Of a stretch of DNA of 64,000 nt, positions 1,310 to 24,183 are shown one piece after another. Origin of the DNA: Sphingobacteriaceae bacterium (GTDB lineage: Bacteria > Bacteroidota > Bacteroidia > B-17B0 > Aurantibacillaceae); the NCBI GenBank assembly GCA_013823565.1, contig PNMI01000010.1, positions 3,899-67,898 of the forward strand, read 5' to 3'. The translations under genes and the position numbers were made by a program. The notes beneath the pieces were generated by a model. It was given only the letters and a program-made list of their open reading frames with translations, had not been told where the DNA came from and ran no database searches. Positions within the stretch are counted from its first letter, which is position 1, and every line of letters begins with the position of its first letter.

Positions 1310-1312
1310 TAA

Positions 1313-3513: not shown

Positions 3514-3525
3514 AAGATAAAAAAC

Positions 3526-3556: not shown

Positions 3557-3601
3557 TAAACTTATTGAGACAATAAAACTTAATAGTATCATATGATACT
3601 A

Positions 3602-3985
3602 TCAATCTTTCCTAAAATCATCCATATCTCGTCTATCTTTTTTGGTTGGCCTACCAGCGCCTCTATCTCTTTGCATGTTAGGCATAAAAAACACAGAAGG
3701 CATGCGCTCTAGTTTTTCTATTGGTGGAGAATGATCTATATAATTTTCTTTAGCTATTTCATAGCTTTGACGTTTATCAATAATGCCTGTGACTTCAATA
3801 ATCTTTTTAACGCCTTGAGGAAAGGACATCGTATAACGTTCCCCAATTTTTACAACATGCGCTGCTTTAATAATTTCATCATTTAGCTTTACTTTATTGC
3901 CTTTAATAGCAGCACTTGCCAATGAACGTGATTTATACATTCGTATAGCCCATAAATAACTATCTAATCGAACATTTTTTTCCAT
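3602..3985 (-). CDS. S4-domain RNA-binding protein, Hsp15-like
   Basis: 127 aa. N-terminal VRLDSYLWAIRMYKSRSLASAAIKGNKVKLN S4 pattern and a basic C-terminal tail. Its start overlaps the upstream stop (TAATG). Confidence 0.75.
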   Translation of the reverse strand: MEKNVRLDSYLWAIRMYKSRSLASAAIKGNKVKLNDEIIKAAHVVKIGERYTMSFPQGVKKIIEVTGIIDKRQSYEIAKENYIDHSPPIEKLERMPSVFFMPNMQRDRGAGRPTKKDRRDMDDFRKD

Positions 3986-5031
3986 TATTTATTTTGCTTG
4001 TCCAACACTTCTTTTGCTCTAACACTATAAAAACCTTTATTGTTTACAATATACTGTAGTTGTTTGTTGGCTTCGTCGGTTTGTTTTAAGTTTAATAAAC
4101 ATAAAGCTTGATAAAATTCAGATTCTTGGTGAAAGATATTATTAATATTATCAAGATTCTTTTGAAAGAAATTTTTAGCGACAGCATATTTACCTAATTG
4201 GTAATAACACATGCCTAAATAAAATTGAGCATTGGCATCATCATGGTTGAAGTCATATAACATCGTTAATTCTTCAATACAATTGGTAATGTTTTTAGAG
4301 CTAAAAAAACGCATTGCCTGTTTGATAATTTTATGAGCTAAATAAGAATTTGATTTATGTAAGTAGGCTGTTTCTATATCAGCCTTACTTCCATATTGAG
4401 CAGGAACACCCGTGCTGGCATTTAAATCAATGGCATAACTGTTTTTAAAGTAATACATGCGATAGTTTGTCACCTTTAAGTTATGAATAAAAACAACGGG
4501 TGCATTTGGTGTAAACTGAAAAACAATATCTTCCTCTTCTTCCTTTTCAGGAAGATTTACATCTAATGGTTTACTTGGGAGTGTTTCTAAAATTTCAGGA
4601 GTTTCAACTTCTTCAATATTGTTTGCAATGGTATTGTAATGTTCTATTTCTTTGATTTCAATTTTTGGAAATATGGTGTCGATAGAGGCAATTTTGTTTT
4701 CTAATTTATGTTGAGCTTTTTCTTCTTCTAATGATTGATAAACAGAAGGATGGTTTTTGTTTTTTTGAAAAATGACAAAGAAAATGGAAACACCAATTAA
4801 TAAGCCACATAAAACGCTAATAAAAATAGTATTAAATGAACCAGAACTACCTTTTATTTTTTTATCTATTGATTGATTTAGTTTATCAATATCAGAACTC
4901 GACACATTAAATTGCTCAAAAGCCACAGATGACAAGTAACTCAAATCTGTTTCTTGCATATTCTTTTCTAATGAACGCTGTTCTTCTTTAGTTAAGTTAT
5001 TATAATTTGATATGTCTTTGGGGTTAAGCAT
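3985..5031 (-). CDS. single-pass membrane protein with C-terminal TPR repeats, putative anti-sigma factor
   Basis: 348 aa, TM at FISVLCGLLIGVSIFFVIF, TPR-like C-terminus (AQFYLGMCYYQLGKYAVAKNFFQK). Start overlaps the stop of the upstream ECF sigma gene by 8 nt (ATGCTTAA). Confidence 0.55.
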   Translation of the reverse strand: MLNPKDISNYNNLTKEEQRSLEKNMQETDLSYLSSVAFEQFNVSSSDIDKLNQSIDKKIKGSSGSFNTIFISVLCGLLIGVSIFFVIFQKNKNHPSVYQSLEEEKAQHKLENKIASIDTIFPKIEIKEIEHYNTIANNIEEVETPEILETLPSKPLDVNLPEKEEEEDIVFQFTPNAPVVFIHNLKVTNYRMYYFKNSYAIDLNASTGVPAQYGSKADIETAYLHKSNSYLAHKIIKQAMRFFSSKNITNCIEELTMLYDFNHDDANAQFYLGMCYYQLGKYAVAKNFFQKNLDNINNIFHQESEFYQALCLLNLKQTDEANKQLQYIVNNKGFYSVRAKEVLDKQNK

Positions 5032-5617
5032 TTTTTTTATTTTTTGAAGAATCTTCTAATAGTAATTTTAAATTTCGTTTACCATTTTGGATATAACTTT
5101 TTATTTCATTTAGGCTAAAACTAGTTTCGTTGGCAATATCCTGATAGCTTTTGTTTTTTAAATAAAATAACTCCACGCACACTCGTTGATTTTCTTTAAG
5201 TTTTGGCAAACAGTCTTTCATTTTTTCTAATAACACATCGTCGCTTATCGTATTTATTTTTTCTTCTTGTTCGTAATCAGGTGTTTCATATTCAAATTCA
5301 TAATACGACTTGATATTTTTTGATTGTGATTTGTTTTTCCGAATCAACGAAATACAATGATTACGAACCACAAAACTTAACCAGCCTTTAAAATTATCAA
5401 TCTCTCTATTATTAATATCTAACATTAGCTTTTCAAACAATTGCATGGTGGCATCCTGGGCCTCATCTTTATCTTGTAAATAAAATAAACAGGTACCATA
5501 CACAACAGACACATGTTTTTTAAATAAATCGGCAAACAACTCTTTATTACCACTTTGCTTATAATGCTTAAGTAGTTCTTCGTCGCTGTTATATTCTTTT
5601 TTCTTAAAAAGCCACAT
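5024..5617 (-). CDS. RNA polymerase ECF-type sigma-70 factor
   Basis: 197 aa. Region 2 (DEAQDATMQLFEKL...FKGWLSFVVRNHCIS) and region 4 HTH (SYQDIANETSFSLNEIKSYIQNGKRNL). Confidence 0.85.
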   Translation of the reverse strand: MWLFKKKEYNSDEELLKHYKQSGNKELFADLFKKHVSVVYGTCLFYLQDKDEAQDATMQLFEKLMLDINNREIDNFKGWLSFVVRNHCISLIRKNKSQSKNIKSYYEFEYETPDYEQEEKINTISDDVLLEKMKDCLPKLKENQRVCVELFYLKNKSYQDIANETSFSLNEIKSYIQNGKRNLKLLLEDSSKNKKNA

Positions 5618-5850: not shown

Positions 5851-6699
5851 ATGAAAAATTTAAAACAAACAATACTACTAGGTTTATTATTAATAGGGAG
5901 TTTAAGTGTTTTTTCGCAAGGATCTTCTGGTGTATTAAAAGGACAGATATTAAATACCGACAATGAACCTGTTTTTGGTGCAACCATCAAGATTTTACAA
6001 GGAGGCGTTTTAATTGGCGGTACGGATACAGACGAAAAAGGAATGTATACTTATAAACCATTAAATGCTGGAAGTTATGACGTATTAATTTCTAGCGTTG
6101 AAACTCAAACAAAAAAGGTAACAGATGTAAGAGTAAGTTCTGAAAAAACAACTTATTTAGATGCAACCGTATCTACAAACATGTTAGATGATGTTGAAAT
6201 TATAGCATACGTTAAGCCGGTAATTGATAAAACCTTTATGGACATTAAAGAAATATCTGCAGAAGAGTTTTTACACATGGCAGTAGATAGAGGGAACATT
6301 GTAGATGCAGTTATTAATATCTCTTCTGAAGCTACTCAAGATGCAAACGGAGATTTACATGTAAGAGGAGGAAGAGGAGACGCTACTGCATTTATTGTTG
6401 ACGGGATGAAATCACCTACTATTAATGGAGTAGCTGCCTTATCAGTTGAAAATGTGGCGATTATTACAGGAGGCATTCCGGCACAATACGGAGACGTAAC
6501 TAGCGGTGTTATTGTGGTAACAACAAAAGACTACTTTGGTGCCATTCAAAGTAAACGTATGCGTGAAAACTATATCATAGCAAATAAAGACCGAATTAAA
6601 AGAGAAAAAGCAGCCCTACAAATGGAAAAGCAACGTAAAAAAGAAATTGAAGAAGAACTACGATTAGAAGAAGAAGCTAAAAAGAACAATGGTTTATAA
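5851..6699 (+). CDS. secreted carboxypeptidase-regulatory-like plus TonB-receptor Plug domain protein without a beta-barrel
   Basis: 282 aa. Signal peptide, GVLKGQILNTDNEPVFGATIKI beta-sandwich, Plug-like HVRGGRGDATAFIVDGM...GGIPAQYGDVTSGVIVVTTKD, then a charged helical tail. A strong terminator follows. Confidence 0.7.
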   Translation: MKNLKQTILLGLLLIGSLSVFSQGSSGVLKGQILNTDNEPVFGATIKILQGGVLIGGTDTDEKGMYTYKPLNAGSYDVLISSVETQTKKVTDVRVSSEKTTYLDATVSTNMLDDVEIIAYVKPVIDKTFMDIKEISAEEFLHMAVDRGNIVDAVINISSEATQDANGDLHVRGGRGDATAFIVDGMKSPTINGVAALSVENVAIITGGIPAQYGDVTSGVIVVTTKDYFGAIQSKRMRENYIIANKDRIKREKAALQMEKQRKKEIEEELRLEEEAKKNNGL

Positions 6700-6702
6700 A
6701 AT

Positions 6703-6733
6703 AAAAAAGCCCTAGTATTTACTAGGGCTTTTT
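6703..6733. terminator. bidirectional Rho-independent terminator
   Basis: GCCCTAGT (6709-6716) / ACTAGGGC (6721-6728), flanked by an A-run and a T-run. Confidence 0.8.
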
Positions 6734-6751
6734 AAATAATAAAAACTTAAT

Positions 6752-7846
6752 TTATTTTTTGTAAACCATCACATTAAATACAAACGGTTGAATTTTTTTA
6801 ATTTGTTCACTACGTTTTAAACCTTTTAAATTTGATTTTTTAGTTACTAAAGCTAAATCTTTTTTCAACGAATCGTTTTCTAATTTATCAATAGTTTGTT
6901 TAATAAAGTTAGACTTAATAGCAAAACCAGTTCCTTCGGCAGAGCTTTGTTTTCCACGAATGACACCAATAATATTTCCTTGCTCATCCATTAAAGGACC
7001 ACCGCTATTTCCTGGGTTTACTGGAATAGAAATTTGGTACATAGTTGTATCATTATTAAATCCAGTCATTGAACTTAAAGCACCTTCACCATAAACCGCA
7101 TCTCTACGAGGATAACCTAAAGTAAAAATTTTATCTCCAATTTCAGAAGCATTCTCTTTAAATGAGAACGGGAATGCGATATTTTTGATAGCCTCAATAT
7201 TATCTATTTTATAAATCGCAATATCTAATGATGGCTCACTTGCTACTAATTTCGCAGAGGCTCTATCTAACACACTATTAGTTACAAATACAGAATCTGC
7301 ATTTTTAACCATGTGGTAGCTAGTAATAAAATATCCTTTATTGTTTAAGGCAAAACCAGTTCCTTCAATATTTGCAGGAGCATAGTTTTTTATGCGTTTG
7401 TTTGTTGCCCCAGTAATTCCTTCAATAATTGCGTCTTGAGAATATTTTAATTCAGTAACGTCACGTTTTAAATCAGTAATAGCATTTCCTTGCTGTTTCA
7501 ATAAATAGCCGCCTGTACTTAAAACAGTAATTGTGCTGATAACAGCAATAACAGCAACAGATGCTGCTACAGCAAATGTTTTACCGTGCTTTTTAATGAA
7601 AGTTTCTTCTGGTTTTATAGAAACAATTTTAGCATCACTTCCAAATTCTTGTTTATGAATGGTAGCTAATATTTGTTTTAAATGAGTACGTTGTTCGTGT
7701 TGGTTAATGCCTTCAATTAACGTTTTGTGTTTTTCAAAAGCAGTAGCAAATTCTGAATCTGTTTTTAAGCGCGTTTCAAACTCGTGTTTTTCTTCAGTAC
7801 TTAAAGTTCCAAAAATGTAATTGTCAAATAAATCAGTTGCTCTCAT
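6752..7846 (-). CDS. membrane-anchored trypsin-like (S1) serine protease with an anti-sigma-like cytoplasmic N-terminus
   Basis: 364 aa, TM about residues 91-112. Periplasmic triad candidates H178 (TSYHMV), D208 (LDIAIY), S281 (GNSGGPL). Lies 22 nt downstream of an ECF sigma gene. Confidence 0.75.
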   Translation of the reverse strand: MRATDLFDNYIFGTLSTEEKHEFETRLKTDSEFATAFEKHKTLIEGINQHEQRTHLKQILATIHKQEFGSDAKIVSIKPEETFIKKHGKTFAVAASVAVIAVISTITVLSTGGYLLKQQGNAITDLKRDVTELKYSQDAIIEGITGATNKRIKNYAPANIEGTGFALNNKGYFITSYHMVKNADSVFVTNSVLDRASAKLVASEPSLDIAIYKIDNIEAIKNIAFPFSFKENASEIGDKIFTLGYPRRDAVYGEGALSSMTGFNNDTTMYQISIPVNPGNSGGPLMDEQGNIIGVIRGKQSSAEGTGFAIKSNFIKQTIDKLENDSLKKDLALVTKKSNLKGLKRSEQIKKIQPFVFNVMVYKK

Positions 7847-7868
7847 CTCTTGTTTCCCTTTCTATATT

Positions 7869-8426
7869 CTAGTTTTCAAAAAAATATCGTTTCAATCGTT
7901 GTAAACATTTATACTTCTGTGTTTTAGCATTGTCTGAATTCGTATACCCAAATTTTTCAGATATTTCATCCATACTTAACTTATACACGTAGAAGTCTTT
8001 TAATAGTGTTTTGCAGGGTTCGCCTAAGTTTTCCATGCAAGCATTCATTTTCTCAATATCCGATTCTTTTTTCAGGTGGTCTGTAATTTCATCGGACACA
8101 TCTACTACTTCATTTTCCTCGTCTTCTTTAAAACGAGCTAAATGACCACTACCTCTTAATTGCTTTAACCAAAGGCGTTTGGCAATCGAAAAAATAAAGG
8201 TTTGTAGTTGGCAATTGAGTTCAAAAGCAGGCTTCTGAACATTTTCATATAAAACAATAATTGTTTCCTGATAAATGTCGGCAGCAGCTTCGCTATTACC
8301 ACTATTGTTTACAACATATTTAAGAACGAGGTTATAATACTTTTTGTATAAAGCGCGTAACACCGCATCGTTGTTATGCTTGAGCCCTTCAATAAATTCA
8401 AGGTCTGTGTACGCTACTTTCGACAT
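7869..8426 (-). CDS. RNA polymerase ECF-type sigma-70 factor
   Basis: 185 aa. Region 2 (AAADIYQETIIVLYENV...LQTFIFSIAKRLWLK) and region 4 (SMDEISEKFGYTNSDNAKTQKYKCLQRLK). Confidence 0.85.
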   Translation of the reverse strand: MSKVAYTDLEFIEGLKHNNDAVLRALYKKYYNLVLKYVVNNSGNSEAAADIYQETIIVLYENVQKPAFELNCQLQTFIFSIAKRLWLKQLRGSGHLARFKEDEENEVVDVSDEITDHLKKESDIEKMNACMENLGEPCKTLLKDFYVYKLSMDEISEKFGYTNSDNAKTQKYKCLQRLKRYFFEN

Positions 8427-8521
8427 AAAGTCTTTGTTTACATTAATACCTAAAGGGGCTAAAGGTAACCTCGTTCGATATGATTTTTTAAGTTAAAACA
8501 CTGATTTTCAATCAGATAATG

Positions 8522-9811
8522 TTATTTATTCATTAAAGCTTCTATTTCATCAACTTCTAAAGGGATGTTTTTCATTAAATCATCATTTCCTGTAGGAGTA
8601 ATTAAAATATTATTCTCTAAACGAATACCCAACCCTTCTTCTGGAATATAAATTCCAGGCTCGCAAGTAAATACCATACCTGCTTGCATTGGTTCTGCAA
8701 AAAATCCAACATCATGTACATCTAACCCTAAAAAGTGAGAAGTGCCATGCATGAAATATTTTTTGTAAGCAGGCCAAGCTGGATTTTGATTTTTGACTTC
8801 GTCCGTTTTAATTAAGCCTAATTGTAATAATTCTTCAGTCATTAAATCACCAACTGCTTTGTTGTATTTTTCAAAGGTATTACCAACCACTAACATGTTT
8901 GTAGCAGCTTTCATGACGCGTAAAACCGCATTATATACTTCTTTTTGACGAGGAGTGTATTTTCCATTTACAGGAATTGCACGAGTCATATCACTAGCAT
9001 AGTTTGCATATTCGGCAGCTACATCTAATAAAATCACATCACCATCTTTACAGGCTCTGTTGTTTTCTACATAATGTAATACACAGGCGTTAGCCCCACT
9101 TGCTACAATTGGTCCGTATGCAAAACCACGACTTCTGTTGCGAACAAACTCATGAATTAATTCAGCTTCAATTTCATATTCCATGACGCCTGGCTTAACG
9201 AAGCTTAATAAACGACGGAAACCTTTTTCGGTAATATTACAGGCTTGTTGAATTGCCTCAACTTCTAACGGATGTTTGATGGCACGAATACGGTGCATGA
9301 TAGGTGCCGAACGTTGAATCGTATGTAAAGGAAATTGTTCTTTAATTTTTTTATTGAAACGCATTTCAGCTGTTTCCATATCAATATAACGACGTGTGTG
9401 TTCGTTACTGTTTAAGTAAATATTCTCTGCTTGAAATACAAAGCCTTTAAATATTTTATCAAACTCATGGTACCAGTAAATGTTTTCAATGCCACTTGCT
9501 TCTTTAGCTTGTTCTTTAGTAAGCTTAGCACCTTCCCACACAGCAATTAAATCGCTGGTTTCTTTAATAAATAATACTTCTTTGTTTTTTCCGTCTTTTA
9601 CGTCAGGAAAAATCATTAAGATAGTATCTTCTTGATCAATACCAGATAAATGTAATAAATCACTGTTTTGAACAAAGCCAAAAGATCCATCACCATTAGT
9701 TGGCAAAATATCATTACTAACAAATAAAGCGATAGAGTTTGGTTTTAAGTGTTTAATGAAATTTTTACGATTATCGATGAATAGGTCTTTTTTTATGGCA
9801 GAATATTTCAT
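8522..9811 (-). CDS. pepP: Xaa-Pro aminopeptidase (M24B)
   Basis: 429 aa. DGDVILLDVAAEYANYASDMTR, HGTSHFLGLDVHD, EPGIY, RLENN metal-ligand motifs. Confidence 0.9.
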   Translation of the reverse strand: MKYSAIKKDLFIDNRKNFIKHLKPNSIALFVSNDILPTNGDGSFGFVQNSDLLHLSGIDQEDTILMIFPDVKDGKNKEVLFIKETSDLIAVWEGAKLTKEQAKEASGIENIYWYHEFDKIFKGFVFQAENIYLNSNEHTRRYIDMETAEMRFNKKIKEQFPLHTIQRSAPIMHRIRAIKHPLEVEAIQQACNITEKGFRRLLSFVKPGVMEYEIEAELIHEFVRNRSRGFAYGPIVASGANACVLHYVENNRACKDGDVILLDVAAEYANYASDMTRAIPVNGKYTPRQKEVYNAVLRVMKAATNMLVVGNTFEKYNKAVGDLMTEELLQLGLIKTDEVKNQNPAWPAYKKYFMHGTSHFLGLDVHDVGFFAEPMQAGMVFTCEPGIYIPEEGLGIRLENNILITPTGNDDLMKNIPLEVDEIEALMNK

Positions 9812-9862: not shown

Positions 9863-10294
9863 ATGTCAAGCTACAATATCATAAAAAAATCAGAAACAAA
9901 AACAGCTATTATTAGCCTTTGTGATGATGGGATTGTGAGGGTTTTATTTAAGAAAAAAATAGAGATTGGAGTAAACGAAATAAAAGAAAACCACGAGGCG
10001 TATAATAAGTTAGTTGAAAACAAAATGTACGCTTTTTTGTTTTGGTCTGAAGATGGCGATGTTGTTTATACGAATGAGGCTGGTAAGTATTCTAAATTGA
10101 AGCAAGACACATACCCAAAAATATGCATTGCTGTTTTGGTTAAAACATTAGGCCAAAGGCTACTTACTAATTTTTATTTAAAAATTAGTAAGTCAAAAGT
10201 TCCTTTTATGGTCTTTAATAATCTGAAAGATGCTGAGGAGTGGTGTAGAAAAGAATGTCTTAAGTATAAACAAAAAGAAAAACAATTACTCTAA
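9863..10294 (+). CDS. hypothetical protein, possibly SpoIIAA/STAS-fold (DUF3478/DUF7793-like)
   Basis: 143 aa. The pattern (DDGIVRVLFKKKIEIGVNEIKEN...ICIAVLVKTLGQRLLTNFYL...VPFMVFNNLKDAEEWC) resembles STAS-like accessory proteins of Bacteroidota. This is recalled by eye only. Confidence 0.4.
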   Translation: MSSYNIIKKSETKTAIISLCDDGIVRVLFKKKIEIGVNEIKENHEAYNKLVENKMYAFLFWSEDGDVVYTNEAGKYSKLKQDTYPKICIAVLVKTLGQRLLTNFYLKISKSKVPFMVFNNLKDAEEWCRKECLKYKQKEKQLL

Positions 10295-11299
10295 GGTAAT
10301 GTAAACAGATAAATGGTCGCTATAACCATTATAGTATTTTTCGCCACTGTAAGTTCTGTTTGGTTTTTCCTCTCCAGTCTTCTGATTTTTAAATAACACA
10401 AAGTCTTTCTTTAAAATAAATGCGTTTTTAGGATCGAATTTATATCCTTTTTTTGCGCCAATAAAACCTTGCGATACAATAATTTGGTCAAGTACTCTCC
10501 ATTCTTTATCGTAATAATGTGTGCCTTGTTTAGCAGCATCTAAAGTTTGATAAGCATTATATAAATCACCTTTATCTTTTGGCGAATTGCTAGCTTTTAA
10601 AGTGTTTAAAATACTTTTATCTGTTGGATGATCATTAAAATCACCCATGACGATTACTTTTGCTTTTGCGTCTTTTTTTTGTAATTCATTAATTTTATTA
10701 CGCACTTGTTCGGCAGCAAAAATTCGACGAGGCTCACTTTCTGCTTCTCCCGATCGTCTGCTTGGCCAGTGATTGACAAACACATAAATGATATCGCCAT
10801 TAGTTGCTTTTAAAGTAGCAAATAAAATGTTGCGTGTTTTATAATCACCTAAAGATGGATTTGTTGCATTTAATTCTTTAAAATCAACCAAAGTAAAAAC
10901 AGATTTATCATATAATAAACCCACATCTATACTTCTTTCATCAGGACTATCAGTACACAATACACCGTATGATTTTTCTTTTAATTGAGATTTAGAGATT
11001 AGTTCTTCTAATACGTCTTTATTTTCTACTTCTACTAAACCCACTAAATTTGGTAAGCCAGGACCTGCAACGGTTGAATCAAGCACTTGAGCAATTTTAG
11101 TTAATTTATTCATAAAACGAGTTTCGTCCCATTTCATTGGCGACTCTGGTAAAAACTCATCGTCTTTTTTATTTGGATCATCTTTGGTATCAAAAAAGTT
11201 TTCGCAATTATATAATGAGACTGTAATTGGAGATTTTGATTGAGCAAAACTAGTGGTGATGCTTAATAATAAAAGGCTTGAAATGATTAATTTACGCAT
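10286..11299 (-). CDS. secreted endonuclease/exonuclease/phosphatase (EEP) family protein
   Basis: 337 aa. Signal peptide, YNCENFFD, VNHWPSRR, GDFNDHP, SDHLSVY. Confidence 0.8.
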   Translation of the reverse strand: MRKLIISSLLLLSITTSFAQSKSPITVSLYNCENFFDTKDDPNKKDDEFLPESPMKWDETRFMNKLTKIAQVLDSTVAGPGLPNLVGLVEVENKDVLEELISKSQLKEKSYGVLCTDSPDERSIDVGLLYDKSVFTLVDFKELNATNPSLGDYKTRNILFATLKATNGDIIYVFVNHWPSRRSGEAESEPRRIFAAEQVRNKINELQKKDAKAKVIVMGDFNDHPTDKSILNTLKASNSPKDKGDLYNAYQTLDAAKQGTHYYDKEWRVLDQIIVSQGFIGAKKGYKFDPKNAFILKKDFVLFKNQKTGEEKPNRTYSGEKYYNGYSDHLSVYITLE

Positions 11300-11397
11300 G
11301 TAGCAAATGTAATTAAAAATAATTTGATGGATTAAAGGTATGATTTCAAAAATTAAACCATATTTACATATTGTTATTATTTCTTAAATTAATTGCC

Positions 11398-11883
11398 ATG
11401 AAAAAATATTTTACCATAAAAAATATCGCTATCTTTTTAGTATTTCTATTTTTAACCATTCAATCAATTAGAATTGATAAAACAACAGTTCCAGTTAATC
11501 CAGAAACAGATTTTATTGCATTAACTTCAGCTAATGCAGAAATTGCAGGAATGTTAAAAACGGCTTGTTACGATTGTCATTCCAATCAACCAACCTATCC
11601 TTGGTACACAAATATTGCTCCAGTATCTTGGTGGATTAAGCACCATATTAATGAAGGAAGTCAACATTTAAATTTTTCAATTTGGGGAACTTATAAAGAA
11701 AAGCGTAAGAATCATAAATTAGATGAGTGTGTTGAAATGATTGAAGAAGGAGAAATGCCAATGAGTTCTTATACAATTATGCATGGTGAAGCTAAATTAA
11801 CGGACGCTCAAAAACTACAATTAGTAGAATTTTTTAAAGCTCAAAAAACAGTAATGGCAGAGCCAGCAGAAGAGCAACACTAA
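11398..11883 (+). CDS. heme-binding domain (Haem_bd-like) membrane protein
   Basis: CYDCHSNQPTYPWYTNIAPVSWWIKHHINEGSQHLNFSIW motif. ATG at 11398 is preferred over the upstream TTG at 11371 (MKKYF... gives a normal signal anchor). Confidence 0.7.
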   Translation: MKKYFTIKNIAIFLVFLFLTIQSIRIDKTTVPVNPETDFIALTSANAEIAGMLKTACYDCHSNQPTYPWYTNIAPVSWWIKHHINEGSQHLNFSIWGTYKEKRKNHKLDECVEMIEEGEMPMSSYTIMHGEAKLTDAQKLQLVEFFKAQKTVMAEPAEEQH

Positions 11884-14450: not shown

Positions 14451-17171
14451 TTATTTTACTAATACTTTAGAAAAAATGTTGGTCATAATTTCTTCGTTCT
14501 CTGCATTGTGACGTTTTGAGAAACCTGTTGCGGGACTAGCCGCAGCACTTCTACCGAAATATTTTAAATTTAAAGAACGCAAGTTGTTGTCAACAAATCT
14601 CCAAGGACCCATGTTTTCAGGCTCTTCCTGAACAAATAAAAAGTCTTTAGCTTTATTGTATTTTTTTAAGATGGCGTCCACTTGTTTTTGAGGGAAAGGA
14701 TATAATTGCTCTAAACGAATAAAAGCAATATCATCAGTGCCTTCTTTTTCTCTACGCTCAATTAAATCATAATAAACTTTACCAGAGCAGAAAGCCACAC
14801 GTGTTACTTTTTTAGCATCAATGGTATCATCTAATACTTCTTGGAAATTTGCTTTAGTAAAGTCGGTTAATTTACTTACACAGCTTGGGTAACGTAATAA
14901 TTTTTTAGGAGTAAAACATACTAACGGTTTACGGAAATCACGTTTCAACTGACGACGAATCACATGGAATTGTTGAGCCGGAGTTGTTGCATTAATGATT
15001 TGCATATTGTTTTCAGCACATGCTTGTAAGAAACGTTCCATACGAGCACTTGAATGCTCTGGCCCTTGTCCTTCATAACCATGAGGTAATAATACTACTA
15101 AGCCATTCATACGACGCCATTTGTATTCGGCAGAAGTTAAATATTGGTCAATAATAATTTGAGCACCGTTGAAGAAATCTCCAAATTGTGCTTCCCAAAT
15201 AGTTAATGTGTTTGGCGCCGCAAAAGCATAACCATATTCAAAACCTAAAACACCATATTCACTTAATAAAGAGTTATAGATTTCTAGTTTTACTTTAGCG
15301 TCAATGTTATTTAAAGGAGTGTATTCTTCTTCACTATCTTCCACTTTAACTACCGCATGACGGTGAGAGAAAGTACCACGCTCCACATCTTGACCGCTAA
15401 AACGAACAGGATGCCCTTCTTTCATCAATGTAGCGTATGCTAATAATTCTCCCATAGCCCAATCATAATTGTCGTTAGCAATCATGTTCTTTCTATCGTC
15501 AAATAATTTTTGAATTTTGTTAAAGAATTTTTTGTCTTTAGGAAGGTCGGTAGATTTTTTAGCAACCTCTAAAAATAATTTCTCATCCACAGCTGTTTTA
15601 GGAGAGCTATCAAAATCTGATGCTCCGGCCATTTTAACACCTTTCCAATTTCCTTCTAAGAAAGAAGTAATTTTAGCTTTTTCTGTTTTTTTCGCTTCAT
15701 CTAAATTGGCATCTAATTCAGCTTTAAAAGCAGTTTCCATTGTTTTAGCTTCATTTGCTAATTCAGGACTCTCTACCTTTAGTTTTTCAACATAAATATC
15801 TTTTGGATTAGCATGAGCAGCAATTGCTTTGTATAATAATGGTTGAGTGAAACGAGGCTCATCACCTTCGTTATGACCATATTTACGGTAACATAACACG
15901 TCAATAAATACATCCTTGTGGAAGGTTTGACGGAACTCCATTGCTAATTTTGAAATGAAACATAAAGCCTCTACATCATCTCCATTTACGTGAAACACAG
16001 GACTTAATACAACTTTAGCAACATCTGTACAATAAGTAGATGAACGAGCATCTAAGAAGTTAGTGGTGAAACCAACTTGATTATTAATCACAAAATGAAC
16101 AGTTCCACCTGTTTTATAACCATCTAATTGGCTCATTTGAACCAATTCATACACTAAACCTTGACCAGCAATAGCACCATCACCGTGTAAAATAACAGGA
16201 CATGCTTTTGAATTATCGCCATTATGACGGCTATCAATTTTTGAACGAACAATACCTTGAACAACTGCAGCAGATGTTTCTAAGTGAGATGGATTAGGTG
16301 TTAAACTAATGTGAACATTTTTACCATCATCACTTAATTGATCAGATGAATAACCCATGTGGTATTTTACATCACCATCAAATAAAGAATCTTCACTTGG
16401 TCTTCCTTCAAACTCAGTAAATACATCTTTATAAGTTTTGTTCATAATATTCGTTAACACATTTAAGCGTCCACGGTGAGCCATGCCAATTACGTAATCT
16501 TGAATACCTAAATTTACACCATGCTCCATTAATGTATTCATTGCTGGAATAACAGCCTCGCCTCCTTCTAAAGAGAAACGTTTTTGGCCAACGAATTTTG
16601 TATGTAAATAGTTTTCGAAAACAACTGCTTGAGTTAATTTTTTAAGAATTACTTTTTTTTCTGTTACCGAAAATGAAGGCGTATTCTTGTTTTTTTCCAT
16701 GCGCTCTTGTAACCACTTCAATACTTTTGGTTCACGCATGTATAAATATTCTACACCAATACTTTGGCAGTAGGTACACTCTAAGTGAGCAATAATATCT
16801 TTTAATTTGGCTGCGCCAATTCCAATTTCGCTACCAGCTTGGAAAACTGTTTCTAAATCTTTATCAGATAAACCAAAGTTTTCAAGAGCTAAAGTTGGTT
16901 CATAGGTACGACGTTGACGAACAGGATTTGTTTTAGTAAACAAGTGTCCGCGTTGGCGGTAACCGTTTATTAAACCAATCACTTTAAATTCTTTAGTTAC
17001 ATTTTCAGGAATAGCGCCGCCATCCGATTCGTAGGAAGTACGGGCAAATTCGAAGCCTTTAAAGAAATCGCGCCATGATGCGTCAACAGAATTTGGGTCT
17101 TGGGAATATTGCAAAAATAAACTCTCAATAGCGTTTACATCGCTTGTGCCAACATAGGAAAATTTGTCCAT
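14451..17171 (-). CDS. sucA: 2-oxoglutarate dehydrogenase E1 component
   Basis: 906 aa. MAHRGRLNVL, ILHGDGAIAGQG, YRKYGHNEGDEP, EAQFGDF. Confidence 0.95.
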   Translation of the reverse strand: MDKFSYVGTSDVNAIESLFLQYSQDPNSVDASWRDFFKGFEFARTSYESDGGAIPENVTKEFKVIGLINGYRQRGHLFTKTNPVRQRRTYEPTLALENFGLSDKDLETVFQAGSEIGIGAAKLKDIIAHLECTYCQSIGVEYLYMREPKVLKWLQERMEKNKNTPSFSVTEKKVILKKLTQAVVFENYLHTKFVGQKRFSLEGGEAVIPAMNTLMEHGVNLGIQDYVIGMAHRGRLNVLTNIMNKTYKDVFTEFEGRPSEDSLFDGDVKYHMGYSSDQLSDDGKNVHISLTPNPSHLETSAAVVQGIVRSKIDSRHNGDNSKACPVILHGDGAIAGQGLVYELVQMSQLDGYKTGGTVHFVINNQVGFTTNFLDARSSTYCTDVAKVVLSPVFHVNGDDVEALCFISKLAMEFRQTFHKDVFIDVLCYRKYGHNEGDEPRFTQPLLYKAIAAHANPKDIYVEKLKVESPELANEAKTMETAFKAELDANLDEAKKTEKAKITSFLEGNWKGVKMAGASDFDSSPKTAVDEKLFLEVAKKSTDLPKDKKFFNKIQKLFDDRKNMIANDNYDWAMGELLAYATLMKEGHPVRFSGQDVERGTFSHRHAVVKVEDSEEEYTPLNNIDAKVKLEIYNSLLSEYGVLGFEYGYAFAAPNTLTIWEAQFGDFFNGAQIIIDQYLTSAEYKWRRMNGLVVLLPHGYEGQGPEHSSARMERFLQACAENNMQIINATTPAQQFHVIRRQLKRDFRKPLVCFTPKKLLRYPSCVSKLTDFTKANFQEVLDDTIDAKKVTRVAFCSGKVYYDLIERREKEGTDDIAFIRLEQLYPFPQKQVDAILKKYNKAKDFLFVQEEPENMGPWRFVDNNLRSLNLKYFGRSAAASPATGFSKRHNAENEEIMTNIFSKVLVK

Positions 17172-17237
17172 TTTAATTTTCGTTAAAAAACAGCGCTAAT
17201 TTAAGGATTTTAATGGAAAAATGGGTACTTTTATACC

Positions 17238-17636
17238 GTGAAACACATATTATTTTTAATATTCATTTTATCTCCTTTTTTGGGATTATTTTCTCAAGAA
17301 AATCCAAATAGCAACGCTATTCAAACATCCTTAAAAGTAAGAGCCTTACAAGAAAAAAAGGAAGAGTATCATAAGCGAACAAACGGAGAAAGTGACGGTT
17401 ACCGTGTAAAAATTCATTTTGGTTCAGATAAAAGTAAAGCCAAAGAAGTTCAAGCAAAATTTTCTTCTCAATACAACGATGTGCCTACTTATGAAGAGTA
17501 TCAGCAACCTAATTTTGTAATTATGGTTGGGGATTATAAAACTAAGCTAGAAGCTTACGAGCTATTAAAGAAAATTAAAGAAGATTATCCTTATGCTTTT
17601 ATTGTAAAAAGCAGGGTTAGACCCACTAAACTGTAG
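17238..17636 (+). CDS. SPOR domain-containing protein
   Basis: 132 aa. A GTG start gives a clean signal peptide. C-terminal GYRVKIHFGSDKSKAKEV...VGDYKTKLEAYELLKKIK matches the SPOR pattern. Confidence 0.65.
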   Translation: MKHILFLIFILSPFLGLFSQENPNSNAIQTSLKVRALQEKKEEYHKRTNGESDGYRVKIHFGSDKSKAKEVQAKFSSQYNDVPTYEEYQQPNFVIMVGDYKTKLEAYELLKKIKEDYPYAFIVKSRVRPTKL

Positions 17637-18990: not shown

Positions 18991-20001
18991 ATGGAATTAT
19001 ACTTAGATTCAGCAAACCTTAAAGAAATTGAAGAAGGTTTTAAATTAGGATTCTTAAATGGTCTTACTACTACTCCTACCTTCATGCAAAAAGAAGGTAT
19101 TACAGATATCGATGGAACGATTGTAAAATTAAGCAAAATGGTTCCTGTACTTCAAATTGAAGCATTAGGAAATTCAGCTGAAGAAGTTTTAGCAGAAGCG
19201 GAACGCCAATTAGCCTTAGGATTAGACCCAAAGAAAACAGTATTTAAAATTCCCGTTTCATTAGAAGGCGTTAGAGCTTGTAAAATGTTACGCGATAAAG
19301 GCTATTTAGTAAACGTACACTTAGTGTATACCTTACAACAAGCTTATATGGCTATGCAAGCGGGCGCAACGTATGTTTGTCCATTAGTTGGTCGTTTACA
19401 AGATCAAGGACATGATGCTTTAGCATTGGTACAACAATGTGTAGATGCAGTTGACTTATATGATTACGATACTAAAATCATGTTTTCATCAGTGCGTAAT
19501 GCAGAACACGTGCGTAACGCTATTAATATTGGTGTTCACACTATTACCGTTCCGTTAAAAATTATCAAACAATTAACGGAGAATAACTTCACTACTTTAG
19601 GTACTGACCAGTTTATACAAGATACGCGTTTAATGATGGTAAAAGTGAAAGAAGCTATTAAAGCAACTAATCCTTTAGTATCAGAAAACACTTCGGTAAC
19701 AGATGCAATCGTTAAAATGACAGAATTTGGTTTTGGTGCAGTTACTGTTACTAAAGCTGATGGAAGTATTAAAGGTGTATTTACAGATGGTAGCTTACGT
19801 AAATTAATTGGAGAAAAAGGAAGAGATATTTTAACGAAAAACTTATCTGATTTAGAATATAGAGAACCAATTACAATTGATGCTAATGTTTTATTAAACG
19901 ATGCAAATTCTTTATTTAAGAAAACTAACGTTGATACTATTGTTGTGACTGATGGTGGTAAACCGGTTGGTATGTTAGATATTCAAGATATGAAAGGATA
20001 A
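18991..20001 (+). CDS. transaldolase/fructose-6-phosphate-aldolase-fold protein fused to a C-terminal CBS pair
   Basis: The N-terminal ~210 aa align by eye with E. coli FSA (MELYLD; VFKIPVS with Lys86; YVCPLVGRLQD). The C-terminal ~120 aa is KpsF/KdsD-like CBS (VTDAIVKM...GVFTDGSLRK...VVTDGGKPVGMLDIQD). Confidence 0.8.
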   Translation: MELYLDSANLKEIEEGFKLGFLNGLTTTPTFMQKEGITDIDGTIVKLSKMVPVLQIEALGNSAEEVLAEAERQLALGLDPKKTVFKIPVSLEGVRACKMLRDKGYLVNVHLVYTLQQAYMAMQAGATYVCPLVGRLQDQGHDALALVQQCVDAVDLYDYDTKIMFSSVRNAEHVRNAINIGVHTITVPLKIIKQLTENNFTTLGTDQFIQDTRLMMVKVKEAIKATNPLVSENTSVTDAIVKMTEFGFGAVTVTKADGSIKGVFTDGSLRKLIGEKGRDILTKNLSDLEYREPITIDANVLLNDANSLFKKTNVDTIVVTDGGKPVGMLDIQDMKG

Positions 20002-20020
20002 AAATTCACATTAAAATTTA

Positions 20021-20050
20021 AAACCTGTCAATTTTGGCAGGTTTTTTTTT
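20021..20050 (+). terminator. Rho-independent terminator
   Basis: ACCTGTC / GGCAGGT stem followed by a T9 run. Confidence 0.75.
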
Positions 20051-20104
20051 GGAATAAAATTACGCTTATGAGGATTTTAGCAAAAAAAGTTTAACTTTAA
20101 TATT

Positions 20105-21178
20105 ATGGCAAACAAATCACAGTTAATTGATGATATAGGGGAACTTCCGTTTTTTTTATTTTATCAGGGAGATTATACTCTATCTCCTACATTAAGTATA
20201 ATTAATGTTGTGGAAAAACATTTTGAGCCAATAGTAAAAAAAACAAGCTTAAAAAAACTAGTCTATTTATTAATAGAGTCTCTTCAAAATATTGAGAGAT
20301 ATAGTGCTCATGTTGCATCGTCCGAAGATTTTTCTCTTATCTATTGTGACGGAAAGTCTTTTTATATCATTACTCAAAATACTATTTATAATGATAAGGT
20401 AAATGACCTATCAAACAGACTACAAACAATCTCTAATAAAAGTCAGGAAGAACTAGACGAAACATATATTCAGGTTCTTTCATCTGAAACAAAAACAGAA
20501 AAAGGCGCTGGATTAGGATTGATTGATATAGCCAGAAAAAGCAAAAACAGTTTATATTACTCCTTTGATAAAGTCTCTGACACGTATTCAACATTTAACA
20601 TGGGCTTTTCTATTCCTATGGATAAAAGCATGGACGCGATTACCATTGATAATACTAAAGCAGAATTAATTGTAAAAGAATTTAAAGAGAATTTCAAGGG
20701 AAATAAAAGTTCATTAATTTATGGAGGAGATTTTTCAACGACGTTTATAAAATCACTTTTAGATCTTTTAAAAACAGCTAAGGTAAATGAGTTAAATAGT
20801 AAAAACAGGAAAACACATCATTTACTAATTGAAATGATTCAAAACGTTAAAAAACACGGCTTTGAAATTGAAAACAAGAGTCGTGGACAATTATTTTTAG
20901 AATGGAAAGATGATGGATTGCACATTACAACCTATAATTTAATTGAAGAGGAACAAAGTAATCGCTTAATTAAAAAAGTTGAATTATTAAACGAGGCAGA
21001 CGAGGAAAGCCTAAAAATTATTAGTAAAAATAATTTACAGGATTTAACCCAACAAGGGGGTTTAGGATTAATAGATGTAGCGACATTAATTTTCCCAAGA
21101 AAAATTGGGATTAACACAATTAAAAAAAGTATCTTAGTTTCAGAATTGATGTTATCCATTCAAGTGAATTATGAATAA
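20105..21178 (+). CDS. tandem-duplicated SiaB-like / anti-sigma-type GHKL serine-threonine kinase
   Basis: 357 aa, two ~180-aa halves. Each half has an N-box-like E-x-x-Q-N (IESLQNIERY; IEMIQNVKKH) and a G-box-like G-L-G-L-I-D (GAGLGLIDIARKS; QGGLGLIDVATL). Confidence 0.6.
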   Translation: MANKSQLIDDIGELPFFLFYQGDYTLSPTLSIINVVEKHFEPIVKKTSLKKLVYLLIESLQNIERYSAHVASSEDFSLIYCDGKSFYIITQNTIYNDKVNDLSNRLQTISNKSQEELDETYIQVLSSETKTEKGAGLGLIDIARKSKNSLYYSFDKVSDTYSTFNMGFSIPMDKSMDAITIDNTKAELIVKEFKENFKGNKSSLIYGGDFSTTFIKSLLDLLKTAKVNELNSKNRKTHHLLIEMIQNVKKHGFEIENKSRGQLFLEWKDDGLHITTYNLIEEEQSNRLIKKVELLNEADEESLKIISKNNLQDLTQQGGLGLIDVATLIFPRKIGINTIKKSILVSELMLSIQVNYE

Positions 21179-21548
21179 AAATCCACACATAATAGAAGCA
21201 ACAGAAGATACTCCATTAGTTGTTCTTGAAAAAAAGGATGGCGTCAATAGTATTCTAATTCAAGGTGTTTCTATGCCCGAAAATTTATTTGATTTTTATA
21301 CTCCTTTATTCGAAACCGTTTTTAATTTCTTTGAGACGGATAGTATCACAAATATGGAGATTAACGTTGAGTATATGAATTCTATGTCTAATAAGCAGAT
21401 TTTGAAGCTAATCAAAACGGTTTATGAAAAAGCCCCTTCTGTTAAGGTTATATGGAAATACTCAAAAGAAGATGATTTAATTAAATTAAAGGGACAAGAA
21501 ATTCAAAGCGTGTTTCCTGAAATTAATATTCTATTGACAGAATATTAA
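21171..21548 (+). CDS. DUF1987 / SiaC-like regulatory phosphoprotein
   Basis: 125 aa. TPLVVLEKKDG...ILIQGVSMPENLFDFYTPL...INVEYMNSMSNKQILKLI is the DUF1987 pattern. Start overlaps the upstream stop by 8 nt (ATGAATAA). Confidence 0.65.
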   Translation: MNKNPHIIEATEDTPLVVLEKKDGVNSILIQGVSMPENLFDFYTPLFETVFNFFETDSITNMEINVEYMNSMSNKQILKLIKTVYEKAPSVKVIWKYSKEDDLIKLKGQEIQSVFPEINILLTEY

Positions 21549-23314
21549 ATTTTAAATCCAAGCACAAGAACATCATCTGTTTGTTCTTTAGTTCCTTTCC
21601 AGGTGTTAAACTCTGTTTCCAAAACAGACTCAGAATTAGAAAAATTAGAAGAGGAGGAAACCTTTCTTAATAATTCATCCATTCGTTTTAAATTATATTT
21701 TTCAACGTTTTCGGTTTTTCCACCAAACTGATCGCAGTATCCATCGCTCAATAAGTAAAAACAATCTCCTTTTTTTATCGGAACAGATTGATCTGCTAAA
21801 TCTTTTTCGTTGATTGAAAGACCAATTGTTTTTGCAGTAACTTTGTGGTGAATGATGGTGTTGTTTGTAATTTGATATAAACCATTGGTAATGCCCGAAA
21901 ACAAAAGATCGTTAGAGCCATCTTTAATACTGATAATCGTAATATCAATACCATACTCTACTTGTTTATCATTTGAAAAAGCAGATACAATCATTTGATT
22001 TAATTCATATAAAATTTTGCTCGGCAATACATTGCCCTGAACATTTACAATGTTTTCTAAAATACTATGTCCCAAAATTGAGAGCAGTGCTCCAGGAACT
22101 CCATGCCCTGTACAATCAGCAACTGCTATAATTTTATGATTATTAACATGACTAAACCAATAAAAATCTCCAGATAAATAGTCTTTTGGTTGGTTAAAAA
22201 TAAAAGAGATTGGAAACAAGTTATTTAATGAAGATTTATCTTTAAAAAAACTAGACTGAACAATTGAGGCGTAGCGAATACTGCTTAAAAGTCGTGCATT
22301 TATTTTGCTAATGTTTTTGTTTTTTTCGGCTAATATTAAATTGTGTTTCTTTCTTGTATTTAAAAAATTTAATAGAAGTAGGATAGATATGATGGCAAAA
22401 ACACAAAATAAGCCTAGATAAATAATTTTTTTTCTTGAAGCACTAATTTCGTTTTGTTGAGTTTTTATGAGTAACTCTTTAACTTGTATTTGATTTTCGG
22501 CATTTTTGATTTGAGATAATAATAACTCATAATGTTCACTCTCAGGATTAATCAGAGATAATGATTTTTTTGCCTCCTCTATTTGGTTTTTAATTTCATC
22601 AATTGACATTAAAGAATCTTGTAGAAGAAAATTTAAAGACGTCTGTATAGCTTTACCAAGCTTAATAGCGGCAGTATCTGCTTTTAAAACCACTGAAGCA
22701 GAGGAGTGTTTTAGATTATCAGCTTCGTTGTTTTTTTTGAAAGAGTTTAAAGCTGGAATTGAGGCAAGTTTTGCAAGGTTTTTTTTGGATGAATTATTAA
22801 TTGTAACAGATTTTTCAATTAATATTTTATTAGATTGTTGAACATCCGCACTAGATTTTTTTTGAATACTTGTATTAATAACATACTTAAGCGTTCCTCC
22901 GTCACTAACCGTTAGCTCTCCTAGATTATTGAATGAGTTGTCGCCTTTTTTTAAAATAAATGACGTGCCTAGATAGTTTGTTTTTTCGCCAGCATCTTCA
23001 TAGTTAATAGTAAGTTGAACAGAAGAATAGCCTTCGCTGGTAATTTCAACAACATATTTATTTGGCTTTGGTAAAACAAACGAAAACGAACCTGTAATAT
23101 CAGAATAGATATTAAATGAATTATTTTCATTTTTAATACTAAGCTTTGCACCGCCAATTGGCCCCTCAAAACTAACATTTTTACTAGCCTTTTTTATAAG
23201 CAAAACTCGTTCGCCTAAAAACCCATATATGTTTCCCGAAAAAGTAACCTGTTGAGAAAAAACAACGAGATTAAAAAAAGTAAAAACTGCAAAACATAAA
23301 ATCTTTAAACGCAT
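21545..23314 (-). CDS. membrane-bound SpoIIE/PP2C-family protein phosphatase with a periplasmic sensor region
   Basis: 589 aa. Signal peptide, carboxypeptidase-regulatory-like beta-sandwich, coiled coil, TM (IIYLGLFCVFAIISILLLLNFL), PP2C (SGDFYWF...VADCTGHGVPGALLS...LLSDGYCDQFGG...EQTDDVLVLGF). Confidence 0.8.
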   Translation of the reverse strand: MRLKILCFAVFTFFNLVVFSQQVTFSGNIYGFLGERVLLIKKASKNVSFEGPIGGAKLSIKNENNSFNIYSDITGSFSFVLPKPNKYVVEITSEGYSSVQLTINYEDAGEKTNYLGTSFILKKGDNSFNNLGELTVSDGGTLKYVINTSIQKKSSADVQQSNKILIEKSVTINNSSKKNLAKLASIPALNSFKKNNEADNLKHSSASVVLKADTAAIKLGKAIQTSLNFLLQDSLMSIDEIKNQIEEAKKSLSLINPESEHYELLLSQIKNAENQIQVKELLIKTQQNEISASRKKIIYLGLFCVFAIISILLLLNFLNTRKKHNLILAEKNKNISKINARLLSSIRYASIVQSSFFKDKSSLNNLFPISFIFNQPKDYLSGDFYWFSHVNNHKIIAVADCTGHGVPGALLSILGHSILENIVNVQGNVLPSKILYELNQMIVSAFSNDKQVEYGIDITIISIKDGSNDLLFSGITNGLYQITNNTIIHHKVTAKTIGLSINEKDLADQSVPIKKGDCFYLLSDGYCDQFGGKTENVEKYNLKRMDELLRKVSSSSNFSNSESVLETEFNTWKGTKEQTDDVLVLGFKI

Positions 23315-23478
23315 AAATATTTAATATTTAACTAAATTACATTAATGCCTTAGTTTATGCAAATAAATACTGAGGCGATGTATTTATAATTGTCGCAATA
23401 GTAATGGGTACAAAATCTCAAATTTAGCTTCAAAAATCTAATACTTTATTTATCTTTATTCTTTAATTAAAAATTTAT

Positions 23479-24183
23479 ATGTCACATCTCACACAACTAT
23501 TTACTGAAATCGGAGGTCAATTTATAACACCAGAGGCAGAGTTAATGGAAAAGTTAAAACACGTCAAAGCTTTTGTGTTTGATTGGGATGGTGTATTTAC
23601 TGATGGTAGTAAAGATCATTTATTACAAAGTCATTTCAATGAAGTAGATAGTATGGGAACAAACTTGTTGAGGTTTTCATACTTTTTAAATCATAAAACA
23701 ATTCCAACTACTGCTATTATATCAGGTGAAAAAAATAGTGCTGCTTTTACTTTTGTGGATAGAGAACGTTTTCATGCCTCATATTCAAAGTTTGCTAATA
23801 AACTAGACGCTACTAAACACTTGTGCGAAACTTACGGCTTACATGTAAACGAAATATGTTATGTGTTTGATGACGTATTAGATTTGAGCTTAGCAGAAGT
23901 ATGTGGCTTGAGAATTTTTATTTCTCGCAACGCCAATCCATTATTTAATGAGTATGTGATTCGTCATTTTTTAGCAGATTATGTAACTGGTGCTTCAAGT
24001 GGAAACGGAGCCGTGCGAGAAGCTTGTGAATTACTAATTGGACTAAACGGCAATTTTAATGAAGTGATTACAGAACGTAAAAACTTTTCTGACATCTATT
24101 CTAAATATTTAGCAATGCGTAAGGCTACTACGCCTACTTATTACACTTCGCAGGATGGGGCAGTGGTTGAGGTTACAGGCTAG
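23479..24183 (+). CDS. HAD-IIIA phosphatase, KdsC (KDO-8-phosphate phosphatase)-like with a C-terminal extension
   Basis: 234 aa. FVFDWDGVFTDG (DxD), FNEVDSMG, YVFDDVLDL, GNGAVREACELLIGLNG parallel E. coli KdsC motifs. About 45 extra C-terminal residues. Confidence 0.65.
   Translation: MSHLTQLFTEIGGQFITPEAELMEKLKHVKAFVFDWDGVFTDGSKDHLLQSHFNEVDSMGTNLLRFSYFLNHKTIPTTAIISGEKNSAAFTFVDRERFHASYSKFANKLDATKHLCETYGLHVNEICYVFDDVLDLSLAEVCGLRIFISRNANPLFNEYVIRHFLADYVTGASSGNGAVREACELLIGLNGNFNEVITERKNFSDIYSKYLAMRKATTPTYYTSQDGAVVEVTG

Follow-up and report, generated by a model that had tools for sequence, protein, structure and literature searches.

The closest described relative of the locus reported here is the SiaABCD system of Pseudomonas aeruginosa (PA0172-PA0169), which is composed of a phosphatase, a kinase, a phosphoprotein and a diguanylate cyclase. 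The phosphoprotein SiaC is phosphorylated at Thr68, the sole Thr of the peptide LLYLNTSSIK (PMC7647112), and the kinase SiaB dimerises in Pseudomonas (PMC7278518). It has been proposed that DUF1987 proteins, to which SiaC belongs, in general regulate an adjacently encoded protein (PMC8457831, 2021 eLife). The same logic is known from RsbU/RsbV/RsbW and SpoIIE/SpoIIAA/SpoIIAB of Firmicutes, in which a PP2C phosphatase and a GHKL Ser kinase act on a small single-domain phosphoprotein whose acceptor residue begins a helix. In our literature search, P. aeruginosa SiaABCD was the only characterised system among those with DUF1987 and DUF6272 proteins; DUF6272 was not mentioned in what the search returned, DUF1987 appeared only in the 2021 eLife paper on SiaC-SiaD (PMC8457831), and a search for partner switching in Bacteroidota turned up only work on the stressosome of Vibrio vulnificus. 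Here we describe three adjacent genes of the same three families as SiaA, SiaB and SiaC, called the trio below, in a 64-kb stretch of contig PNMI01000010.1 of a Sphingobacteriaceae bacterium. This whole stretch is called the window, and its G+C content is about 30% throughout.

We consider it probable that the trio works as a self-contained phospho-switch on Ser/Thr, of the partner-switching type known from SiaABC. A sequence-only reading of the same DNA had proposed a partner-switching module of a SiaB-like, a SiaC-like and a PP2C protein, and the comparison agrees with it, because the closest characterised or solved relative of each protein is the matching Sia protein. The components of partner switching in general, namely a PP2C phosphatase, a GHKL Ser/Thr kinase and a small STAS-like phosphoprotein, are linked in 27 of 28 related loci and are also joined in fusion proteins. 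The three open reading frames (ORFs) stand exactly where that reading placed them, and they are 357, 125 and 589 amino acids (aa) long. The DUF1987 and SiaB-family matches on which it depended are both significant.

The 357-aa kinase matched the Pfam model of DUF6272 (PF19788; E = 2.7e-43, 147.3 bits against a cut-off of 26.6) and the NCBIfam SiaB-family kinase model (SiaB_fam_kinase, NF038262; 152.1 bits against a cut-off of 85), each in two stretches. It missed the cut-off of the SiaB equivalog model (NF038264; 70.6 vs 225 bits), and it is a tandem, not a single domain of about 180 aa. Both halves aligned by sequence to P. aeruginosa SiaB (6kko_A, E = 2.8e-7). The N half covers about residues 1-177 and the C half about residues 178-357, and the identity between them is only 25% (E = 1e-7), which means that the internal duplication is old. 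The N-box motif IEMTQN of SiaB aligns with IESLQN in the N half and IEMIQN in the C half, and its glycine-rich GAGLGL with GAGLGL and GGLGL, respectively. Among 81 homologues, the N-box E58/N62 and the glycine-rich G134-G138 of the N half, and the N-box E243/N247 and G319/G321/L322 of the C half, are invariant or at least 90% conserved. A degenerate pseudokinase in one of the halves was considered and rejected because of this conservation of both boxes in both halves.

The AlphaFold2 (AF2) model of the tandem kinase had a predicted local distance difference test score (pLDDT) of 85 and a predicted template modelling score (pTM) of 0.86. Its top Foldseek match was again SiaB 6kko_A, with probability 1.00 and a target-normalised template modelling (TM) score of 0.75 over 175 columns. 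Further GHKL kinases came next in the fold search, among them the anti-sigma kinases SpoIIAB and UsfX (ranks 5-12, TM 0.55-0.63). The sequence-only reading had called this protein GHKL/anti-sigma-kinase-like; profile and fold both place it in the SiaB family, and the call has to be corrected to a tandem SiaB duplication, which is not unique to this locus. The tandem architecture is common in environmental sequence data, with 1928 clusters (counted at 50% identity) at E <= 0.001 and 600 at E <= 1e-10, and we take the size of the family as at least 600 clusters at the latter threshold. Nearly all of the top 150 clusters are 350-390 aa long. Because SiaB dimerises in Pseudomonas, the tandem kinase might most simply be understood by analogy as a covalently linked pseudo-dimer with ATP-binding motifs in both halves, and the pTM of the two-domain model fits such a fused form.

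The 125-aa protein matched the Pfam SiaC model (PF09345) with 72.1 bits against a cut-off of 24.5, and its residues 8-123 covered profile positions 1-118 of 120, which bears out the DUF1987/SiaC-like identity first proposed for it. It missed the cut-off of the SiaC equivalog model (NF038265; 49.7 vs 150 bits), and aligned to P. aeruginosa SiaC (6k4f/6kko_C) with E of about 1e-3. Residues 70-73 are N-S-M-S, encoded at 21378-21389, and had been suggested as the phospho-acceptor site, subject to a real alignment. In the alignment Ser71 falls on SiaC Thr68 (YMNSMSNK vs YLNTSSIK). The acceptor column is Ser or Thr in all of 38 aligned relatives, and the Asn before it does not vary; among the 38 are paralogues, members from distant loci and fused forms. 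The block Y68-Q76 (YMNSMSNKQ) is the same in all of 15 homologues, the identity of which goes down to 47%. The ungapped alignment to 6K4F would place Ser71 at the start of the helix matching alpha2 of SiaC.

The residues of SiaC which contact SiaD were taken from PMC8457831 and mapped onto the 125-aa protein through the same SiaC alignment. The equivalents E12, M35, Y68, N70, S71, M72, N74, L103, K107 and E110 are invariant or nearly so in the clade, and several contact positions are unlike those of P. aeruginosa (S69 to M, I71 to N, R103 to L, L107 to K). This pattern of residues suggests that the contact face is constrained but tuned to a different partner.

The 589-aa phosphatase matched the Pfam SpoIIE model (PF07228, E = 8e-14), and its PP2C domain is closest to that of SiaA (SiaA-PP2C, 6k4e) both by sequence (E = 1.1e-26) and by fold (TM 0.90, root-mean-square deviation 2.1 A). 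The motifs GDFY, DCxGHGVPGAL, DG and DD are common to the two, and the metal-binding Asp residues D383, D400, D524, D580 and D581 are invariant in 65 phosphatase homologues. The SiaA equivalog model (NF038263) was missed with 142 vs 700 bits, and only residues 328-589 (262 residues) matched it, at profile positions 397-657. Hydropathy showed an N-terminal hydrophobic segment at residues 1-21 and a single transmembrane segment at about 297-319. In the AF2 model, residues 23-145 form an all-beta sandwich with pLDDT of about 90, residues 182-221 are disordered, and one continuous helix (260-356) crosses the membrane and joins the periplasmic helices to the PP2C domain. No HAMP match was obtained in the profile searches of the 589-aa protein. 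The topology described from the sequence, with a signal peptide (here an N-terminal hydrophobic segment), one transmembrane segment and a SpoIIE/PP2C domain, agrees with these results; its carboxypeptidase-regulatory-like domain is a beta-sandwich in AF2 and a sub-threshold match in the profiles (CarboxypepD_reg, 26 vs 32.3 bits; PF13620 and PF13715 both sub-threshold). PF13620 and/or PF13715 are precomputed matches in many phosphatase orthologues.

Scanning the GTDB set by pattern, with one genome for each species, gave 28 related loci; one bears the label Akkermansia, and the others are labelled Bacteroidota. In 27 of the 28 the SiaC-like gene comes directly after the tandem kinase gene, a related phosphatase is present in 27, and the order of kinase, SiaC-like gene and convergent phosphatase is kept in 27. 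Co-conservation of the three genes, which the sequence-only reading regarded as decisive, is therefore found. The same layout was also present on the metagenome contigs L030-L032 and L035, with about 30-40% kinase identity. The genes flanking the trio differ in every lineage. All related genome records from the scan are metagenome-assembled genomes (MAGs), so that no cultured host was identified for genetic work.

The gene contacts within the trio are also conserved to a large extent. The 8-nt overlap ATGAATAA between kinase stop and SiaC-like start, and the overlap of the two convergent stops, are present in the sequence as first claimed. The start/stop overlap occurs in 18 of 27 related loci, and the convergent stop overlap (4 or 11 nt) in 19 of 26. 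The overlap ATGAATAA suggests translational coupling of the kinase and the SiaC-like gene. Within 19800-23600 the hairpin at 20020-20045 is the sole terminator-like site of its kind, and it separates the kinase/SiaC operon from the upstream aldolase-CBS gene; so the pair is probably under its own promoter. A sigma-70 promoter scan gave 19 sites against 19.9 in shuffled sequence, with a consensus that does not cover Bacteroidota promoters.

Fusion proteins join the same parts in a different way. Chlorobi and Bacteroidales MAGs encode proteins of about 490-517 aa in which a SiaC domain is joined to the tandem kinase; one of them is encoded at 8001-9524 of locus L029, a Chlorobi MAG, with the tandem DUF6272 kinase and the SiaC domain in one protein. 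In a Bacteroidia MAG a single 1541-aa protein (P0409) carries Reg_prop, Y_Y_Y and SpoIIE domains followed by the tandem kinase, which means that a Reg_prop/Y_Y_Y-sensor phosphatase is fused to the tandem SiaB kinase. A partial member of the same 90%-identity cluster (P0392) is encoded at 1-4116 of locus L033, also a Bacteroidia MAG, and a SiaC gene follows directly at 4121-4507. Judged by their domain composition, these fusions tie the predicted kinase, phosphatase and SiaC activities together.

Sensor parts of other kinds are found with SiaA-type phosphatases. A search of the window for further copies found a single kinase gene, a single SiaC gene and a second PP2C gene. The product of the latter has a PP2C domain with 34% identity to that of the trio phosphatase (E = 2e-38), and its best NCBIfam match is SiaA with 149 bits. 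Its Reg_prop/Y_Y_Y/SpoIIE architecture adjoins the trio in locus L008, and SpoIIE proteins with PAS, TPR and cyclic-nucleotide-monophosphate-binding (cNMP-binding) domains lie near SiaC genes in other loci. So several sensor phosphatases may act on one switch protein, and the protein encoded at 38634-42053 is a possible candidate for a second input to the same one.

No output gene was found beside the module. In agreement with the sequence-only reading, a G[GAS][DE]EF motif was absent from every open frame of at least 150 codons in the window, and no GG(D/E)EF ORF was found in frames of the same length within about 10 kb in 32 related loci scanned. The sole GGDEF motif hit in the relatives, in locus L020, was rejected as a Laminin_G_3 lectin-like cargo protein of type IX secretion. 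That reading had also proposed a census of neighbouring genes for a recurrent fourth partner, and no such partner emerged: by all-against-all clustering of the ORFs within 10 kb in the 28 loci, no other family occurred in more than six loci. The clusters of six loci all came from the same six loci, which share flanking genes, and the sole cluster found in five unrelated loci was rejected as generic ABC ATPases. The clade is without a conserved adjacent target, unlike the proposal made for DUF1987 proteins in general. The switch target would then be encoded elsewhere, away from the module.

We propose the following mechanism. The cytoplasmic tandem SiaB-family kinase would phosphorylate the 125-aa SiaC-like protein on Ser71. 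The periplasmic sensor, composed of the beta-sandwich and a coiled coil, would detect an envelope or extracellular cue; a single long helix would carry the signal across the membrane into the PP2C domain, and the membrane phosphatase would remove the phosphate from Ser71. The phosphorylation state of the small protein would select its binding partner and, by analogy with SiaC, it might be the unphosphorylated form that binds and regulates the target. In this clade the target would not be a diguanylate cyclase, and its gene would not lie beside the module. Other SiaA-type phosphatases with different sensors would probably feed the same switch protein, and in the window 38634-42053 is the candidate for such a role.

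Some of the data weigh against a phospho-switch of the SiaABC type. None of the trio proteins reaches its NCBIfam equivalog cut-off, and on the basis of these scores we regard them as members of the families and not as orthologues of SiaA, SiaB and SiaC. No output was identified by the clustering, in which no neighbour recurred in more than six loci. The conserved face of the SiaC-like protein could be wholly due to binding of the kinase and the phosphatase, and the tethered switch domain in the kinase+SiaC fusions fits poorly with a freely diffusing regulator.

These same fusions, which would fit a switch acting within a complex, could be explained by an anti-factor logic as in RsbW/RsbV. Here the tandem kinase would sequester a transcription factor or another protein on one of its two non-equivalent halves, and the unphosphorylated SiaC-like protein would only displace it. 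SpoIIAB and UsfX, which are anti-sigma kinases, have the same GHKL fold as the tandem kinase, two halves diverged to 25% identity could specialise, and no SiaC target is encoded nearby in the 28 loci. However, in P. aeruginosa, where alone such a system has been characterised, SiaB interacts with SiaC and not with the output SiaD (PMC7278518). Both halves of the kinase have full catalytic motifs and neither has degenerated into a binding module, and no candidate for a sequestered protein recurs beside the module. The two sigma genes of extracytoplasmic function (ECF) type in the window are 12-15 kb off and are absent from the conserved gene clusters of the other loci. We regard the anti-factor logic as unlikely.

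Two other explanations concern the missing cyclase. The module might control cyclic di-GMP (c-di-GMP) through a SiaD-like cyclase encoded elsewhere in the genome, or it might be a decaying SiaABCD remnant which lost the cyclase and no longer signals. For the remote cyclase it can be said that no function other than c-di-GMP control has been demonstrated for a SiaC protein (PMC8457831, PMC7647112), and that 64 kb of the genome were examined. We think it improbable all the same, since the absence of GG(D/E)EF ORFs from the window and from about 10 kb around the module in the 32 loci scanned counts against it, and since M, N, L and K stand at the SiaD-contact positions S69, I71, R103 and L107. 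To our knowledge many Bacteroidota encode few or no GGDEF proteins, and this was also counted against a remote cyclase. The decay of a SiaABCD system would explain scores below the Sia equivalog cut-offs as well as the missing cyclase, but the three ORFs are intact, and the catalytic and acceptor residues are invariant across homologues down to about 30-47% identity. Moreover, 27 of the 28 species-level loci retain the module between differing flanking genes, and with 600 clusters at E <= 1e-10 the family of tandem kinases is a large one. Because of these conservation data the remnant explanation is effectively refuted, and we give it almost no weight.

The phospho-switch of the SiaABC type can be extended to a wider proposal, which we put forward as tentative. 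The module might be a hub independent of any diguanylate cyclase, in which several sensor phosphatases converge on one SiaC-like protein and are opposed by a fused, asymmetric SiaB pseudo-dimer. The SiaC-like protein might control a target outside c-di-GMP signalling through the alpha2/alpha3 face which Pseudomonas SiaC uses for SiaD. The sensors in this proposal are the CarboxypepD_reg beta-sandwich, the Reg_prop/Y_Y_Y propeller, PAS, TPR-GAF and cNMP-binding types, either periplasmic or cytoplasmic.

Table 1. Features of the trio and of the second phosphatase in the window (coordinates are positions of the window)
Feature	Position	Strand	Size and basis
Tandem SiaB-family (DUF6272, GHKL-type) Ser/Thr protein kinase gene	20105-21178	+	357 aa; Pfam/NCBIfam profiles, fold
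SiaC-family (PF09345/DUF1987, STAS-like) regulatory phosphoprotein gene	21171-21548	+	125 aa; Pfam profile, SiaC alignment
Membrane sensor phosphatase gene	21545-23314	-	589 aa; convergent with SiaC-like gene
Overlap of kinase stop and SiaC-like start, ATGAATAA	21171-21178	+	8 nt; read in sequence
Stop-stop overlap TTAA of SiaC-like and phosphatase genes	21545-21548	convergent	Read in sequence
Terminator-like hairpin and T-run	20020-20045	+	11-pair stem then TTTTT; downstream of aldolase-CBS gene
Codon of Ser71, predicted phospho-acceptor	21381-21383	+	Aligned with SiaC Thr68
Cytoplasmic SiaA-type PP2C/SpoIIE domain, residues 370-589	21548-22207	-	6k4e sequence and fold match
Transmembrane segment, residues 297-319	22358-22426	-	Hydropathy; inside helix 260-356
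Putative periplasmic sensor, CarboxypepD_reg-like beta-sandwich, residues 23-145	22880-23248	-	Sub-threshold Pfam, AF2
Second SiaA-type phosphatase gene, Reg_prop repeats + Y_Y_Y + SpoIIE	38634-42053	+	1139 aa; Pfam, NCBIfam; 15 kb from trio

The convergent stops at 21545-21548, like their equivalents in loci L001-L025, leave zero intergenic space between the SiaC-like and phosphatase genes. Each transcript must therefore end inside the opposing gene or run antisense into it. It means that mutual antisense interference could occur between the kinase/substrate operon and the phosphatase gene.

Three of the related loci showed particular features. Locus L014 (contig CAYYUS010000112.1), labelled 'uncultured Akkermansia sp.', has a full trio with 41-48% identity to the window proteins. 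This is the same level as in the Bacteroidota loci, and the label is probably a binning or labelling error. In locus L007 only a 73-aa C-terminal fragment of the phosphatase lies beside the SiaC gene (10206-10427, minus strand), and a different SpoIIE protein of 499 aa is encoded 5 kb further on (15796-17295, minus strand); this may be loss and replacement of the phosphatase, or an assembly error. In the distant locus L034 two SiaC genes (6421-6801, minus strand; 8127-8498, plus strand) flank a tandem kinase gene (7001-8119, plus strand), with a cytoplasmic cNMP-binding SpoIIE phosphatase nearby (10417-11682, minus strand). It suggests that one kinase can serve more than one switch protein.

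The gene upstream of the hairpin (18991-20001, plus strand) encodes a transaldolase/fructose-6-phosphate-aldolase domain followed by a C-terminal CBS pair like that of the KpsF/GutQ/KdsD arabinose-5-phosphate isomerases, and the aldolase domain occupies the place of the SIS domain. A KdsC-like phosphatase gene (23479-24183) lies on the opposite side of the trio, so the trio may be inserted into a sugar-phosphate gene pair. Both neighbours were considered as parts of the system and rejected: the aldolase-CBS gene was found only in the near-identical genome L001 and is separated from the kinase by the hairpin, and the KdsC-like gene recurred in L001 and L002 alone. Since these sugar-phosphate genes are not conserved with the module, they are probably irrelevant to it. 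The two ECF-type sigma genes are at 5024-5617 and 7869-8426 (both minus strand), each with a gene downstream, encoding a TPR protein (3985-5031, minus strand) and a trypsin-like protease (6752-7846, minus strand), respectively; in the other loci they are not linked with the trio.

Pfam/NCBIfam models already exist for each of the three components, and NCBI already names such MAG proteins 'SiaB family protein kinase' and 'SiaC family regulatory phosphoprotein'. What is new is the conserved cyclase-less variant. A large conserved group of switches without an adjacent output or a cyclase suggests that DUF1987/DUF6272 proteins have a wider role than the control of c-di-GMP. Finding the target would explain how, in many Bacteroidota of freshwater and soil that are uncultured, cues from the envelope or from outside the cell lead to a response in the cytoplasm without a two-component phosphorelay. 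If the hub proposal were true, DUF1987/DUF6272 switches would be a general signalling currency in Bacteroidota. The kinase+SiaC and phosphatase+kinase fusions are ready-made constructs for biochemistry.

Compared with P. aeruginosa SiaABCD, the trio has the acceptor Ser/Thr at the same position (YxN[ST]), and in both systems the phosphatase is membrane-anchored with a periplasmic part. However, no siaD/GGDEF gene accompanies the trio in the window or in the 32 loci scanned. The kinase is a fused tandem of two SiaB domains, whereas SiaB is a 180-aa homodimer, and the sensor of the phosphatase, with its CarboxypepD_reg-like beta-sandwich and long helix, is unlike the N-terminal part of SiaA. The gene order also differs, because the trio phosphatase gene is convergent with overlapping stops, while siaA is the first gene of the co-directional operon siaA-siaB-siaC-siaD.

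The likeness to the RsbU/RsbV/RsbW and SpoIIE/SpoIIAA/SpoIIAB systems of Firmicutes is at fold level (SpoIIAB, UsfX and SpoIIE). The switch protein of the trio is DUF1987 and not canonical STAS/SpoIIAA, its kinase is DUF6272 and not RsbW of the HATPase_c type, and no sigma factor gene is associated with the module. HsbR/HsbA/HsbD of P. aeruginosa and BgrSTUWV/BgrR of Sinorhizobium are examples in which a phospho-regulated small protein directly binds an enzyme and not a sigma factor (PMC8457831); they have STAS proteins and a GGDEF output, neither of which applies to the trio. Finally, the periplasmic Reg_prop/Y_Y_Y architecture of the 38634-42053 protein and of P0409 is shared with the hybrid two-component sensors of Bacteroidota, but in these two proteins it is joined to a PP2C output, plus a SiaB kinase in P0409, in place of the histidine kinase, receiver and AraC module.

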